DNA of 64,000 nt, taken from contig DFOW01000001.1 of the NCBI GenBank assembly GCA_002376885.1, forward strand, positions 143,741-207,740, given 5' to 3'. This DNA is from Patescibacteria group bacterium UBA3531. GTDB taxonomy: Bacteria > Patescibacteriota > Minisyncoccia > Phycocordibacterales > UBA3531. Of this stretch, positions 12,588-38,249 are shown in pieces. Made by a program: the position numbers and the translations under genes. Under the pieces are notes generated by a model. The model was not told where the DNA came from. It saw only the letters and a program-made list of their open reading frames with translations, and searched no databases. Numbering within the stretch: position 1 is the stretch's first letter; the number at the start of each line of letters is the position of its first letter.

Positions 12588-12609
12588 GAGGCCCACTTTC
12601 GTGGGCCTC
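12588..12609. terminator. GC hairpin after topA (gaggcccac-tttc-gtgggcctc)
   Basis: Perfect 9-bp stem immediately after topA stop; no strong T-run. Confidence 0.4.
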
Positions 12610-12636
12610 TGAGTTCGTTGTTCTGGAGTTCTGCCT

Positions 12637-12903
12637 CTAGGCCGACTCCGGAATCCCTCCGACCTCCTTGAGACGCCTGTTGGCGCGCTCGAGGAGCTCG
12701 TCCCGATCGTAGCCGGGCCAGACGATCGTACGCGTCCCGGCCAGAAGCGATCGGATGTAACCACCAACACACCTGATACGCCAGGCACCCTGGTTCGCCC
12801 CCCGATCGGTGTGATCACCGAGCTTGTCGATGAAGGCGAGCTCCTGCTGTTGCGTCCACCCGGTGGTCAAAGGCCCCGAAACGGGAACCGATCGACGTGT
12901 CAT
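12637..12903 (-). CDS. G+C-rich ORFan (cassette A), 88 aa
   Basis: GC3-rich frame; AGGAG 6 nt upstream of ATG; own TTGACA-17-TATTTT promoter; no family recognised. Confidence 0.4.
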   Translation of the reverse strand: MTRRSVPVSGPLTTGWTQQQELAFIDKLGDHTDRGANQGAWRIRCVGGYIRSLLAGTRTIVWPGYDRDELLERANRRLKEVGGIPESA

Positions 12904-12942
12904 GTCCTACTCCTTGTTGAAGGGAAAGAATTACTGCCTATG

Positions 12943-15521: not shown

Positions 15522-15530
15522 CAATTTAAT

Positions 15531-15653
15531 CCAGGGAAGGAATTGGTAGGTGAAATGTCTGGGAGACATTTCACGACGACTATCTAAATCTTCTCTTCGG
15601 AGGTGGGAGTTCCCTGCCTTGTCGGCAGACAGGGATTCTCCCCCCGGGCACCA
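15531..15653 (+). pseudogene. degenerate tRNA-Leu-derived copy with hairpin insertions (tRNA-like element)
   Basis: Shares D-loop GGAATTGGTAG, variable arm and T-stem with the adjacent tRNA-Leu. Carries a perfect 11-bp hairpin with GGG loop (GTGAAATGTCT-GGG-AGACATTTCAC) and a 21-nt insertion in the T-loop. Anticodon arm destroyed, acceptor ends do not pair, ends GCACCA. Confidence 0.5.
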
Positions 15654-15679
15654 CAGCTCATTGACCAAAGGAACTTCTT

Positions 15680-16090
15680 TTGGTTAAATCAGTAATGGGT
15701 GGCAATGGGTGCCACAAAGCTCATGTACCACTTGTCTTTGGGGAGACAAACGTGAAACAAGGAAGGACGTCCTGTGAAGATCCGTTCGTCAACTTCAACG
15801 ATCACCTCTACAAGCGCCGGGGCATCGGCTCGCTCGAAGAGGGGAAGCTCGAACGGACGGAGGATCGACCCGCCTGGGTGCCGGAGGAAGCGACCGTCGC
15901 TGTACGGACGCGGCGCCTCCACGAACGGAGGGTTCTCGAGGTAACCACGTTCCGCCCGAACGGGAGCGGGTTCATCGAACAGAAGAACATCTTGGGAGGC
16001 GGCCGCGGTAGCATGCCGTCCCCCCAGATCGTGGAGATGCTCCTGAAGGAGGAGTACCCCTCGATCGACGTCCACCTCATCCAGGGCTAG
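15680..16090 (+). CDS. G+C-rich ORFan (cassette B); alternative GTG start at 15752
   Basis: Strong G/C bias at third codon positions in this frame; AGGAAGG just before internal GTG; overlapping minus-strand ORF 15689..16075 treated as GC shadow. Confidence 0.4.
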   Translation: MVKSVMGGNGCHKAHVPLVFGETNVKQGRTSCEDPFVNFNDHLYKRRGIGSLEEGKLERTEDRPAWVPEEATVAVRTRRLHERRVLEVTTFRPNGSGFIEQKNILGGGRGSMPSPQIVEMLLKEEYPSIDVHLIQG

Positions 16091-16111
16091 CGCTTCAGGC
16101 GCACAGCCTTC

Positions 16112-16156
16112 GCGGGGCGTGCGGCACGAAAGTGTCCACGCCCCGCCTTCTTTTTT
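16112..16156 (+). terminator. strong intrinsic terminator (10-bp GC stem + T-run) ending at the miaA ATG
   Basis: GCGGGGCGTG...CACGCCCCGC followed by cttctttttt then ATG of miaA at 16157. Confidence 0.6.
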
Positions 16157-17117: not shown

Positions 17118-17183
17118 CTCTCCTGTATGTACAGTGAGGCCATTATAACAGAGAGAGTAGGAAAAGAAATTATTTCTTTACCT

Positions 17184-17210
17184 CGTTATGAATAGTGTGC
17201 TTCCTGCACC
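17184..17210. repeat. 27-bp direct repeat copy of the rpmG 3' end (cgttatgaatagtgtgcttcctgcacc)
   Basis: Matches 17326-17352 (cgttatgCatagtgtgcttcctgcacc) with one mismatch; separated by a GC-rich 105-bp spacer. Confidence 0.7.
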
Positions 17211-17311
17211 TATTACCACTCGGAAACCCACGGTTTTCCGACGGCTTCGCCTGCCTTTCTCCACGGGAAAACTAGAGTTTTCCCGACCCCTTTCCTGCAA
17301 ATGGTACAGGA

Positions 17312-17470
17312 TTACTTTTTTATTTCGTTATGCATAGTGTGCTTCCTGCACCATTTACAGTGCTTTTTGAGTTCAATTTTACGCTCAACAAGCTTCCGAT
17401 TCTTTCGGCTCCAGTAATTAGTGCGCTTACAATCTTTGCACGCAAGTTTTATAAGTTGATCTTGTGACAT
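17312..17470 (-). CDS. rpmG: 50S ribosomal protein L33
   Basis: 52-aa ORF below track cutoff: MSQDQLIKLACKDCKRTNYWSRKNRKLVERKIELKKHCKWCRKHTMHNEIKK, with CxxC...CxxC zinc ribbon and HxxE ending typical of L33. Confidence 0.75.
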   Translation of the reverse strand: MSQDQLIKLACKDCKRTNYWSRKNRKLVERKIELKKHCKWCRKHTMHNEIKK

Positions 17471-17532
17471 ATATTCAAAATTTGAGCTTCATAAAGATAC
17501 CCCATAGACCCTGAAAAATCAAGAGAAAAGGC

Positions 17533-17928
17533 TCACCATGCGGCGAGCCTTCCTTCCCCCGTGCCCTCGGGCTTGGGAGGAATGGCGCTTCTCTGCGGCC
17601 TTCGGAAGAACTGAGATTCCCCCATGGCACGCAACATCTTGACGAAGTCGTCCTCGACACAGAAACCGAGCCTCATGATGCACTCGGGACCATCGCAAAG
17701 GACAACGACAGCGTGACTTCCTTGGGCGCCGTCCTTGGGCTGGAAGACCGAGACCCTTCCTTGGAAGCGCCAAGCAACCAAGCAATCGATGAATCCGATC
17801 TTCGTCCCACAACGAGGACAGACGCGCTTGGGGCACCACACCCCAAACCCAGCACCGGCACTGATACTGTCAGCAACCGAAGACCCCCAGGAAGTGACCC
17901 AATAATCTTCGGGAACAATCTGCGTCAC
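17533..17928 (-). CDS. G+C-rich ORFan with 4-Cys zinc-ribbon-like motif (cassette C), GTG start
   Basis: CPKRVCPRCG...CDGPEC; GC3-rich; AAAGGGGGGG upstream of GTG; no family recognised. Confidence 0.4.
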   Translation of the reverse strand: MTQIVPEDYWVTSWGSSVADSISAGAGFGVWCPKRVCPRCGTKIGFIDCLVAWRFQGRVSVFQPKDGAQGSHAVVVLCDGPECIMRLGFCVEDDFVKMLRAMGESQFFRRPQRSAIPPKPEGTGEGRLAAW

Positions 17929-17961
17929 AGCCCCCCCTTTCTGAAAAACACTTTACCTTTT

Positions 17962-17990
17962 TTGACATAAAAAAGAAAGCATAGTATGGT
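17962..17990 (+). promoter_or_regulatory. promoter TTGACAtaaaaaag-17-TATGGT for cassette C plus-strand gene
   Basis: TTGACA 17962-17967, TATGGT 17985-17990. Confidence 0.45.
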
Positions 17991-18303
17991 TTACGTCTGT
18001 TCTTATTGGGGAAGGAGCCCTATAGACATGCACCATGTTGAAGTGCTAGACATCGATGGATTCCAGAACTTCCGCCTACATGAGGGAGACGAGATCATCC
18101 TCCCTGGCGTTCATCTCGAAGCCTCTCCCGCCCCGGGAGACAAGGTGAAGCTCGCCTTCCGTGACGTGGACTGCGTGACGAAGACGAGAGAAGCACTCAT
18201 CACCGGATCCATCGACCCCGGCGAGCCGAGCAACCCGAGGGAGCCCGTGGCTCCCAAGGACATCCGAGTTCGGTGGAACGATCCCATCGTGCGCTGGTCC
18301 TAA
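17986..18303 (+). CDS. G+C-rich ORFan (cassette C), 105 aa (alternative start 18028)
   Basis: GC3-rich frame, followed by strong terminator; no family recognised. Confidence 0.4.
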   Translation: MVYVCSYWGRSPIDMHHVEVLDIDGFQNFRLHEGDEIILPGVHLEASPAPGDKVKLAFRDVDCVTKTREALITGSIDPGEPSNPREPVAPKDIRVRWNDPIVRWS

Positions 18304-18316
18304 CGGACCAGACAAA

Positions 18317-18352
18317 GACCCCCGCGCATGCGCGGGGGTCTCGTCATTTTTA
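18317..18352 (+). terminator. intrinsic terminator GACCCCCGCGCATGCGCGGGGGTC + T-run
   Basis: 12-bp perfect GC stem followed by tcgtcatttttat. Confidence 0.7.
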
Positions 18353-18485
18353 TACAGTGTGCGCCGGGCAGGATTCGGTCACGAGTTACAAATTCGCTTT
18401 GCTCATAAGTACTCTCGACCCCAGCTCAAAAATAATCTCCCAGATTATTTTTTCCGCTCTTCGAATCCTAATTCCAGTCCAGAAA

Positions 18486-18516
18486 TAAAAAACCCGGCAC
18501 AAGGCCGGGATTTTTG
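18486..18516 (-). terminator. intrinsic terminator after tRNA-Tyr (CCCGGC-loop-GCCGGG flanked by A5/T5)
   Basis: aaaaacccggcacaaggccgggattttt; minus-strand RNA has U-run after stem. Confidence 0.6.
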
Positions 18517-18526
18517 ATCTCTGTGT

Positions 18527-18609
18527 GCGCCGGGCAGGATTCGAACCTGCGTAGGTCTAAGACCGGCGGATTTACAGTCCGCTGCAATTGACCACTCTGC
18601 CACCGACGC
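18527..18609 (-). tRNA. tRNA-Tyr (anticodon GTA), long variable arm
   Basis: Acceptor GCGTCGG/CCGGCGC, anticodon stem GCGGA/TCCGC loop CTGTAAA, T-arm GCAGGTTCGAATCCTGC. Confidence 0.85.
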
Positions 18610-18653
18610 AAAAGCACGAGTAAGTATACACAAAAACTCGTGTCTTTTACAAC

Positions 18654-25883: not shown

Positions 25884-26630
25884 ATGCAGTATATAATATT
25901 ATCACCTTGTATGGGTATAAAATATTTAATAGACGAGCAATACTTTGAGAGCTGGTCCCCTGAAATGGCATACATTCTTGGATTTTTATATGCAGACGGA
26001 AGTTTGGAAAACGCTCCTAAACTGCGAGGAAAATATGTCAGAGCAACAAGCACCGATCTTGAAGTAATAAAACATATAAAAAAATCTTTACGTTCTGAAC
26101 ACAGAATAATCATAATACCCTCTTTTAGAAAGAGAAAAGAGAGATACTTGTTCAGAGCTGGAAGCCATGTTCTTTTTGATTCATTGACACAACATGGCCT
26201 TTTTCCAAATAAGTCTTTATCAATGAAGTTCCCCAAAAACATCCCTTCAAACTACCTAAGTCATTTTATAAGGGGATATTTTGATGGTGATGGATGTGTT
26301 CACTTGTCACAGGCCCGCAACCGAGAAGGTGCTCTACTGGTTAAAAGATTGGGCGTTGTCTTTACAAGCGGAAGTGAGTTATTTTTAAAAGAATTAGAAC
26401 GAGAAATCAGAAATGTCTTAAATATCAAAAAAAGAAATATCTATAAGAGTCGTCGTTCATTCCAGTTACGATATAGCACGACTGACAGTATAGAACTATT
26501 TACATTGATATATGCAAATACAAAAAATTTATTTTATTTAGGTAGAAAAAAAGAGATTTTCCTTCGATATTTTAAGTTGCGACCTCAGAGAATTAATACT
26601 AATATTGGTAAAATGTTAAAAAATATGTAA
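25884..26630 (+). CDS. free-standing LAGLIDADG homing endonuclease (two LAGLIDADG motifs)
   Basis: LGFLYADGS and IRGYFDGDGCV motifs about 100 aa apart; basic C-terminus. Confidence 0.75.
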   Translation: MQYIILSPCMGIKYLIDEQYFESWSPEMAYILGFLYADGSLENAPKLRGKYVRATSTDLEVIKHIKKSLRSEHRIIIIPSFRKRKERYLFRAGSHVLFDSLTQHGLFPNKSLSMKFPKNIPSNYLSHFIRGYFDGDGCVHLSQARNREGALLVKRLGVVFTSGSELFLKELEREIRNVLNIKKRNIYKSRRSFQLRYSTTDSIELFTLIYANTKNLFYLGRKKEIFLRYFKLRPQRINTNIGKMLKNM

Positions 26631-37889: not shown

Positions 37890-38249
37890 GTGTATACCGC
37901 AGCATCTCTTTTTCTGATCATCTTCTGCGTGGCATGCTCCCCTGTGGAGGAGGCAAGCCCCAGAGAGAAAGTGAATGAAATCCGGCAGGGTTTCGTGAAT
38001 GACATCGGAGATGAGGGCCTAGAGAAGGCTCTTGAGAACCTCTCGCAGGAATGCGAGAAGCTCGAAGGCTACGGCTTCAGTGTCAAGACCCTCAACAGGA
38101 CTCGAGGCGTCTACAAGATCAAGATCACTGGGCCCAACGTGGCAACCCAGGTGATCTTTCAGACCTCTGAGTCAGTCGACGAGCAATCCTCTGCAGAGCG
38201 CCTGGACGCTCCTACACTCAAGGGGTTTGAGGCTCCCATTCTCCAGTAG
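37890..38249 (+). CDS. G+C-rich putative lipoprotein ORFan (cassette E)
   Basis: Signal LFLIIFCVACSP with lipobox-like Cys; GC3-rich; GAGAATACC-GTG/ATG context; terminator follows. Confidence 0.4.
   Translation: MYTAASLFLIIFCVACSPVEEASPREKVNEIRQGFVNDIGDEGLEKALENLSQECEKLEGYGFSVKTLNRTRGVYKIKITGPNVATQVIFQTSESVDEQSSAERLDAPTLKGFEAPILQ

Follow-up and report, generated by a model that had tools for sequence, protein, structure and literature searches.

A divergent pair of G+C-rich genes beside tRNA-Tyr in a Patescibacteria lineage, and the tRNA-linked element that adjoins it

Introduction

Small, horizontally acquired islets of ORFan genes with an atypical composition are found in bacteria, often near tRNA genes, and the acquired DNA is usually AT-richer. 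Here we analyse a 64,000-nucleotide stretch of the genome of Patescibacteria group bacterium UBA3531 (contig DFOW01000001.1, positions 143,741 to 207,740; hereafter the window) and, within it, cassette C (17480-18352), a locus at which two divergently transcribed genes, C1 and C2, lie between rpmG and a tRNA-Tyr gene. Like such islets, cassette C has a foreign base and amino-acid composition, consists of short genes without a family, is confined to a narrow lineage, lies beside a tRNA gene, and interrupts a conserved gene order. Unlike them, it is G+C-richer than its host, it is without an integrase, flanking direct repeats, or mobility genes, and its promoters are host-like. A second group of described systems is relevant to C1, namely the zinc-ribbon or four-cysteine small proteins (Pfam clan Zn_Beta_Ribbon), which include proteins of the L33 and L36 type, the N-terminal domain of MqsA, YacG, and the fingers of DksA/TraR.

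What kind of locus is cassette C? Our preferred reading, to which we give a probability of roughly 0.6, is that it is a lineage-restricted accessory islet of two real genes in a conserved backbone, with the origin, the type of C1 protein, and the functional link that are proposed below. That figure covers the statement as a whole, and the support is stronger for its structural and evolutionary core. Adjoining the cassette is a structured element that we term the tRNA-linked element (TLE); in the literature we found no description of G+C-rich islets in Patescibacteria or of the TLE.

Results

The locus and its genomic setting

The features of the locus, with coordinates given as positions in the window, are as follows.

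17312..17470, minus strand: rpmG (ribosomal protein L33), downstream of C1; from the list of open reading frames (ORFs), with Pfam Ribosomal_L33 on the NCBI gene call
17526..17553, minus strand: C1 terminator (terminator scan)
17533..17928, minus strand: C1, gene for a 131-amino-acid (aa) protein, with a GTG start and a G-run ribosome-binding site (ORF list)
17929..18027: divergent control region between the start codons of C1 and C2
18028..18303, plus strand: C2, 91 aa, acidic; a 105-aa form from ATG 17986 is probably over-extended
18316..18341, plus strand: C2 terminator, a G+C-rich palindromic hairpin (terminator scan)
18356..18478, minus strand: TLE, a boundary feature outside cassette C (nhmmer and covariance model R1)
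18525..18609, minus strand: tRNA-Tyr

The two divergent ORFs that the sequence-only reading of this DNA had placed between rpmG and tRNA-Tyr are present there on opposite strands (ORF list), within a backbone that runs clpB, tRNA-Tyr with its TLE, rpmG, tRNA-Trp, miaA, and tRNA-Leu. The claim that both genes are G+C-rich also holds. G+C content is 54% over 17486-18630 against 42% window-wide, and G+C at third codon positions (GC3) is maximal in the called frames, at 0.66 for C1 and 0.73 for C2, as compared with about 0.3 in host genes (0.27-0.33 in miaA, clpB, and topA). Gly, Ala, Arg, and Pro together make up 0.30-0.34 of the cassette C residues and 0.23 of those in host proteins. Several overlapping ORFs of 80-106 aa are found in other frames of the cassette DNA.

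The cassette C locus is 100% identical in six independent assemblies (JGI, ENA, NCBI, and Logan), made from different samples with different assemblers, and three short contigs (1.3-2.4 kb) span the cassette. The surrounding 20 kb is the same base for base across assemblies, with one mismatch in the NCBI copy, which lies on contig PAMJ01000009.1 of the Tara Oceans metagenome-assembled genome (MAG) GCA_002708165.1. Since six independent assemblies agree, the shifts in G+C content are not chimeric joins.

A scan of GTDB genomes with MiaA returned no close relative, the best match being a Patescibacteria-group MAG at 43% identity. A metagenome scan with L33 recovered 80 rpmG loci, many from groundwater, whose L33 is 75-87% identical to that of the window. 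We treat the organism as a marine lineage of the Patescibacteria (candidate phyla radiation), because its MiaA is closest to that of the Patescibacteria-group MAG and because of these L33 identities. None of the 80 loci carries C1 or C2, and in some of them tRNA-Tyr and rpmG are adjacent and cassette-free.

A diverged copy of the pair in a related organism

Both C1 and C2 match only themselves in a word-indexed search of 5.8 billion proteins. Exhaustive HMMER comparison with 1.84 billion cluster representatives returned a single homologue of C1, P0019, which is 113 aa long and 47% identical (E 4e-15). It is the only C1 homologue among about 15 billion proteins overall, and a profile built from C1 and P0019 recovers those two alone from the 5.8-billion-protein index. 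The description of both genes as ORFans thus stands insofar as neither belongs to a recognised family, but C1 is not a strict ORFan, since P0019 exists.

P0019 is encoded on a 1.8-kb Logan contig, here called L031, that represents the same locus in a related organism; its rpmG is 80% identical to that of the window in nucleotides and 87% in amino acids. Gene order on L031 is TLE, terminator, an 88-aa ORF, divergent spacer, a 156-aa ORF, the C1 homologue, terminator, rpmG, and tRNA-Trp. The ORFs of L031 are singletons in the protein collection.

According to the sequence-only reading, the idea of a pair would fail if either ORF lacked coding potential or if homologues never co-occurred. C1 and P0019 diverge like coding sequence, with nucleotide identities of 0.65/0.67/0.40 at the three codon positions, and the C1 homologue occurs together with a positional counterpart of C2 in L031, the sole comparator. 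Because C1 matches L031 in one frame only (tblastn, E 1e-20), the starts of C1 and P0019 align (MTQ and MTK), the divergence follows the codon-position pattern, and the alignment score lies 34 standard deviations (sd) over shuffles, we conclude that C1 is under purifying selection and very probably translated.

The L031 counterpart of C2 is the 88-aa ORF, which occupies the same slot in the same orientation. BLASTP aligns it with C2 across the N-terminal 43 residues (E 5e-5). In a global alignment the two proteins are 23% identical, which is 6.5 sd over shuffles, with 0 of 500 shuffles scoring as well, and nucleotide identity by codon position is 0.38/0.45/0.32, near saturation. They have in common a promoter, 5'UTR, ribosome-binding site, start, length (91 and 88 aa), and terminator. 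The signal is weak but non-random, and we read C2 and the 88-aa ORF as probable, highly diverged orthologues.

L031 also carries something that the window does not. The additional 156-aa ORF (L031 626-1096), without a family, occupies the slot between the spacer and the C1 homologue and lies 29 nt upstream of the latter. A gene must therefore have been gained or lost at the cassette slot after the lineages of the window and L031 split. As far as sequence comparison goes, both genes are shown to have been a divergent pair with a shared control region already in the common ancestor of the two organisms, and cassette C is a fast-evolving, lineage-restricted accessory pair. Of the small linked two-gene module that had been thought conceivable, what stands is the reality of the genes and their retention together in L031; the functional roles suggested for it find no support, that of a regulator plus an effector being a conjecture.

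The control region, starts, and terminators

The control region carries a promoter for C2 with a −35 hexamer TTGACA (17962-17967) and a −10 hexamer TATGGT (17985-17990) at 17-bp spacing, as the sequence-only reading had claimed for the spacer; 10 of its 12 positions match the consensus in a sigma-70-type scan. The spacer itself had been put at 57 bp, and this was in error, since the start codons of C1 and C2 are 99 bp apart. The plus-strand gene is a real ORF, but its proposed length of 105 aa is not retained. ATG 17986 sits inside the −10 hexamer, so the 105-aa start is incompatible with the promoter, and the start at ATG 18028, preceded by the ribosome-binding site GGAAGGAG at 18010-18017, gives a protein of 91 aa. 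This 91-aa form is the representative of its 90%-identity cluster (NCBI, JGI, Logan, ENA, and GEM records), and the 105-aa form is NCBI accession MAZ40822.1.

The start, ribosome-binding site, and 5'UTR of C2 align with those of L031, in which the promoter is TTGACA-17-TATTTT and GGAGGTG precedes the ATG, and a 60-bp core of the spacer is 78% identical between the two loci. An A/T palindrome, CTTTTTTGACATAAAAAAG (17957-17975), overlaps the C2 −35 hexamer.

The C2 terminator is indeed a G+C-rich hairpin followed by a T-run, with a stem of 11 pairs, nine of them G-C. It is 83% identical to L031 214-255, and two stem pairs are changed on both sides (judged by eye). The same hairpin could also terminate the converging minus-strand TLE. 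The terminator hairpin of C1 and the TGA stop codon overlap; beyond the hairpin come a T-rich tract and then a short AT-rich stretch upstream of rpmG. Because a C2 promoter and both terminators were identified, C1 and C2 are best regarded as separate, predicted monocistronic transcription units.

Unequal divergence of coding and non-coding DNA

Non-coding DNA around and within the cassette is well conserved between the window and L031. Identity is 81% between the C1 stop and the rpmG start, 80% in the C2 terminator region, 78% across the spacer core, and 79-97% over the TLE. At conserved residues, third codon positions are 40% identical in C1 (20/50) and 64% in rpmG (27/42). The L031 copies have an intermediate GC3 of 0.54-0.60. 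Faster substitution in G+C-rich genes under AT-biased mutation, diversifying selection, and replacement by divergent alleles are possible causes of this unevenness.

The C1 protein

C1 has seven cysteines, of which C37, C40, C78, and C83 are conserved in P0019 and the other three are not. The conserved knuckles, C37/C40 in CPRC (CPxC when P0019 is included) and C78/C83 in CDGPEC, lie 37 residues apart. The naming of C1 as a four-cysteine zinc-ribbon protein therefore holds for the four conserved cysteines, out of a total of seven, while the ribbon fold is putative, read from the spacing of the cysteines. We infer that C1 may be a small cytoplasmic protein of the zinc-ribbon type, with a nucleic acid or a protein as its putative partner. 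Like zinc-ribbon proteins, C1 is small and cytoplasmic, and it has CxxC and Cx4C pairs at predicted beta-hairpin turns that are kept in P0019. Unlike them, it has no profile or structure match, its knuckles are 37 residues apart, and a conserved C-terminal helix is its best-kept part. The C-terminal motif invariant between C1 and P0019 is D-x-F-V-x-x-L-R-x-M-G-E-S-x-F-F-R-x-P; the last 20 residues of C1 form a Pro/Gly-rich tail that is missing from P0019.

Residues 5-40 of C1 (VPEDYWVTSW...AGAGFGVWCPKR) are 30-41% identical to SLH repeats found in large surface proteins. The E-values over the whole library, 7e-7 to 8e-4, are inflated, as three repeats per protein match the same C1 stretch. The C1 N-terminus resembles the SLH domain (PF00395) in matching repeats of the type VPxDYW...GITxGCGxGxYCP, and differs from it in being without the TRAE part and without a signal peptide. 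C1 was rejected as an SLH-domain protein, as PF00395 gives no match up to E = 10 and P0019 does not keep the motif. The resemblance is a weak lead at most; it could have been left by the donor gene or have arisen by chance.

Searches for families and known systems

That no family had been recognised for the pair is borne out, since Pfam, PHROG, PADLOC, NCBIfam, and PDB all returned no match. The first four of these libraries were compared with C1, C2, P0019, the L031 ORFs, and other island proteins, and gave no significant assignment for any of them; the PDB was searched by sequence and by profile. The best match in PADLOC-DB 2.0, to an 'unknown effector' model, is not significant (E 0.055, 10.9 bits). 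No relatives of the cassette were found in IMG/VR, GenBank phages, or PLSDB plasmids. Neither a recombinase nor an integrase was found by family searches in or beside cassette C, of which C1 and C2 are the sole ORFs, and the other G+C-rich island proteins gave the same result.

Several candidate explanations were tried and set aside. The stretch 17480-18352 has no internal repeats beyond chance, and a diversity-generating retroelement was dismissed because no part of that stretch recurs elsewhere in the 64-kb window beyond chance 12-24-mers (only this window was searched, and a reverse transcriptase was not searched for). A promoter motif common to the G+C-rich cassettes is not supported. Paralogy among the island proteins came down to one weak match (E about 0.03-0.08), to an antisense frame of a second island, cassette B.

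A structured element linked to tRNA genes

A 21-bp copy of the tRNA-Tyr 3' end at 18357-18377 proved to be the tail of a TLE of about 120 nt (18356-18478, minus strand). Over 63 bp the TLE of the window and that of L031 are 97% identical, and nhmmer found the element in other Patescibacteria-like rpmG loci, including cassette-free ones. Copies were found, among others, at L031 8-124 and L059 931-1065 and in L056, L053, L058, L048, L061 (in tandem), L085, L107, and L110, where the three-digit numbers denote retrieved loci. A covariance model, R1, built from 13 copies, finds one copy in the window (102 bits) and 40 copies in 85 related Patescibacteria-like loci (485 kb). It finds none in 318 kb of non-Patescibacteria miaA loci, a strict TLE consensus pattern has no match in IMG/VR, and Rfam 15 holds no match to the TLE.

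The element is about 95-140 nt long and is usually preceded by a terminator-like hairpin. Thirty-seven of the 41 copies (the window included), which are all those with a same-strand upstream tRNA inside the retrieved locus, lie 22-292 nt downstream of that tRNA. The distance is typically 35-80 nt, and the longer ones belong to second tandem copies. The linked tRNAs are Trp, Tyr, Leu(CAA), and Lys(CTT). Each TLE ends in the last ~19 nt (19-21 in the window) of its own upstream tRNA, from the T loop to the discriminator base, and 13 of the 40 related-locus elements reproduce these nucleotides exactly. The predicted fold is a three-way junction whose closing helix pairs the 5' arm with the copied T-loop/T-stem segment. 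Across the copies, standard pairs fill 89.7% of the cells, a figure that falls to about 40% if the partners are shifted by 1-3 columns, and compensatory changes occur in 27 of 28 pairs. One possibility is that the TLE mimics a tRNA minihelix and undergoes processing by RNase P or RNase Z; another is that it is a small mobile element or a landing pad.

Is the 21-bp repeat the scar of an integration event? The two copies, at 18523-43 and 18357-77, bracket just 145 bp, and cassette C lies outside them. No further copy of a tRNA 3' end was found on the far side of cassette C or of cassette B, where alignment scores are at shuffle level. The repeat was accordingly rejected as an integration scar or attachment site, as it belongs to the TLE, the TLE is also present where the cassette is absent, and there is no far-side copy. 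The sequence-only reading was right about the position of the locus 3' of tRNA-Tyr; taken as a sign of an integration site the position misleads, since the tRNA-like repeat belongs to an independent TLE and marks no boundary of the cassette.

The variable slot and other G+C-rich islands

In relatives the backbone runs clpB, tRNA-Tyr/TLE, rpmG, tRNA-Trp (with or without a TLE), miaA, and tRNA-Leu(CAA) (likewise with or without one). In L107 and L110, miaA starts 14-21 nt after a TLE. Elsewhere the gene directly 3' of the TLE encodes a GIY-YIG protein (L053 4608-4844, E 5e-16), a type IV secretion system (T4SS) pilin (L058 3504-3944, E 1e-6), or a nucleotidyltransferase-like product (L043 4666-5169, a weak match), which suggests that the slot 3' of the TLE is variable.

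Cassette B is a G+C-rich island (15650-16150) that lies between a degenerate copy of the 3' half of tRNA-Leu and miaA. Its ORF (136 aa, 15680-16090, plus strand) has its own promoter, TTGACC-17-TTAAAT, and its own terminator; the NCBI call is on the plus strand, those of JGI and ENA are on the minus strand, and GC3 favours plus. At 15523-15651, tRNA-Leu(CAA) is followed by a hairpin and then by a second version of the gene's variable arm, T arm, and acceptor 3' strand. In this copy a 21-nt hairpin interrupts the T loop, the acceptor strand carries three changes, and a CCA is encoded that the real gene does not have. We regard cassette B as an insertion, because the miaA of relatives follows a tRNA-Leu-linked TLE within 14-21 nt.

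At least four other islands of 57-62% G+C (GC3 0.66-0.74) lie between AT-rich core genes, and have AT-rich, host-type promoters and G+C-rich hairpin terminators. Their products belong to no family.

12590-12930: island encoding a protein of 88 aa
28297-30252: island encoding proteins of 392 and 258 aa, probably membrane proteins
37890-38249: island encoding a protein of 119 aa
57300-57725: island encoding a protein of 106 aa

A distant relative of the 392-aa protein, at 23% identity, is encoded on the rpmG-anchored metagenome contig L065.

On the other side of the cassette, the 3'-terminal 48 nt of rpmG occur twice, at 85% identity (17169-17358, minus strand), with a 94-bp G+C-rich insert (17217-17310) between the copies. 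L031 1694-1760 is an empty site without this insert, and the distal copy (17169-17216) is collinear with L031. The distal copy looks ancestral and decaying, as it encodes CNRC rather than CKWC, and the working rpmG would therefore end in the copy that arrived with the insert. Folded, the insert forms a three-way junction, and the helix that closes it joins the insert's 5' arm to the start of the displaced rpmG copy, an architecture like that of the TLE. As a member of the TLE family it was rejected, since R1 gives it only 5 bits.

Separately, a free-standing LAGLIDADG endonuclease-like ORF of 248 aa (25884-26630, plus strand; PF14528, E 6e-12) stops 4 bp before tRNA-Cys, the first of four clustered tRNA genes.

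Discussion

How did a G+C-rich pair come to lie in an AT-rich backbone? We propose that cassette C would have been acquired horizontally from a G+C-richer source before the split between the window and L031 lineages, and that the islet would now be vertically inherited, furnished with expression signals of the host type, and drifting towards host composition. The intermediate GC3 of the L031 copies fits genes that drift in this way. The donor may have been another member of the group, given that G+C contents of 55-60% are found at other Patescibacteria-like loci. As for the functional link between the genes, the likeliest candidate, which we put forward with considerable doubt, is that C1 may act at the shared control region, through the conserved A/T palindrome over the C2 −35, or may bind C2 directly.

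Several observations weigh against this reading. With regard to origin, the donor lineage was not found; the coding DNA of the cassette has diverged beyond the flanking non-coding DNA, which simple vertical inheritance does not explain; and the synonymous sites of C1 are near saturation, so that a resident gene should have shed more of its G+C bias. With regard to the pair, there is one comparator locus, L031 was seen once, and co-occurrence thus amounts to n = 2; the orthology of C2 depends on its flanks and on 23% identity; and a minus-strand scan for a sigma-70-type promoter of C1 returned nothing convincing. With regard to the proteins, the zinc-ribbon fold of C1 comes from cysteine spacing only, profiles of Pfam and PDB gave no match to C1 as a single sequence or as a profile even at E = 10, and alignment-free AlphaFold2 models are poor for C1 (pLDDT 43) and of low confidence for C2 (pLDDT 49), which is predicted to be mostly beta-strand.

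Could the same observations be explained otherwise? Cassette C might be what remains of the cargo of an integrative element, one that inserted at the tRNA-Tyr 3' end or used the TLE tail as a pseudo-attachment site and later lost its integrase. Its foreign composition and its beginning within about 15 bp of the 21-bp tRNA-Tyr 3'-end copy speak for such an origin, as do the abutment of cassette B on the tRNA-Leu 3'-half copy, where in relatives miaA follows the TLE after 14-21 nt, and the GIY-YIG gene, nucleotidyltransferase-like ORF, and T4SS pilin gene that occupy the post-TLE slot elsewhere. We nevertheless consider it unlikely, given that no integrase or recombinase is present in or beside the islet, that the repeat is part of a TLE which also occurs in cassette-free lineages, that a far-side tRNA 3'-end copy is absent for cassettes C and B alike, that the pair is stably inherited in two lineages behind AT-rich promoters of the host type, and that the IMG/VR, phage, and plasmid collections hold no relatives. 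A related and distinctly improbable proposal is that cassettes C and B are hypervariable cargo that lands 3' of the TLE, whose copy of a tRNA 3' end would act as a landing pad or a processing or punctuation signal for foreign genes in Patescibacteria, and that the pair is a diversifying host-interaction or immunity locus in which coding DNA is replaced faster than the promoter and terminators around it. An assembly or binning artefact, in which foreign G+C-rich reads were joined into an AT-rich contig, would account for the sharp G+C shifts at several small islands of the window. It is effectively refuted by the recurrence of the same junctions in the six independent assemblies, including 1.3-2.4-kb contigs that span the cassette and miaA, by the syntenic copy in a different organism, and by the abutment of AT-rich, host-type promoters on G+C-rich coding DNA.

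The small size of the two co-inherited proteins, the very fast turnover of their sequences within a conserved regulatory frame, and the variable slot beside a tRNA gene would also suit a toxin-antitoxin pair or an anti-phage defence or counter-defence pair that diverges in an arms race, and the sequence-only reading had floated a toxin/antitoxin-like module. We find little to recommend it, as the genes are divergent monocistronic units, each with its own terminator, PADLOC, Pfam, NCBIfam, and PHROG returned no significant toxin, antitoxin, or defence profile (best E 0.055), and in L031 a third ORF stands between the promoter and the C1 homologue. In particular, cassette C differs from a type II toxin-antitoxin module in not being a co-directional bicistronic operon and in having its starts 99 bp apart. 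Are the ORFs translated at all? G+C-rich DNA is poor in stop codons and so carries long chance ORFs, and overlapping ORFs of 80-106 aa do lie in other frames of the cassette. One or both ORFs might therefore be untranslated, and C2 especially might be non-coding or in decay, with a conserved promoter and terminator on either side, given its 23% identity to its counterpart and the near-saturated divergence at its codon positions (0.38/0.45/0.32); the disagreement of gene callers over the strand of cassette B and the poor AlphaFold2 models point the same way. Frame-specific conservation excludes this for C1. In the case of C2, both lineages keep the ORF open at nearly equal length (91 and 88 aa) despite saturation, a strong ribosome-binding site and start are aligned, GC3 is highest in the called frame, and the alignment stands 6.5 sd over shuffles. 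We therefore hold that an untranslated ORF is improbable, and we retain the view that cassette C is an accessory islet of two real genes.

The cassette adds one tiny protein family, of two members, and one near-singleton to the uncharacterised accessory genes of the Patescibacteria, and until a function is found the pair itself is of little consequence. That its coding DNA has diverged past a neutral-looking backbone while its promoter, ribosome-binding site, and terminators were kept suggests either that selection has been diversifying or that alleles have been replaced within a fixed expression slot. The adjoining TLE is the more interesting by-product, for if it organises the landing or processing of accessory genes it would add a new architectural feature to the genomes of reduced, symbiotic bacteria.

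Finally, cassette C can be set beside other arrangements of small genes. In contrast to integron gene cassettes, the G+C-rich islands are scattered singly between core genes, each with its own promoter. The locus is analogous to divergent regulator-target pairs in its short conserved intergenic region, its palindrome over the −35 hexamer, and the keeping together of its two genes; it departs from them in having no recognisable DNA-binding domain (helix-turn-helix, winged helix-turn-helix, or ribbon-helix-helix) and in the extra ORF that L031 carries between the spacer and the C1 homologue. Compared with typical ORFan islets, cassette C is distinguished by having been kept through a speciation event, with a regulatory frame that is better conserved than the coding DNA it serves.

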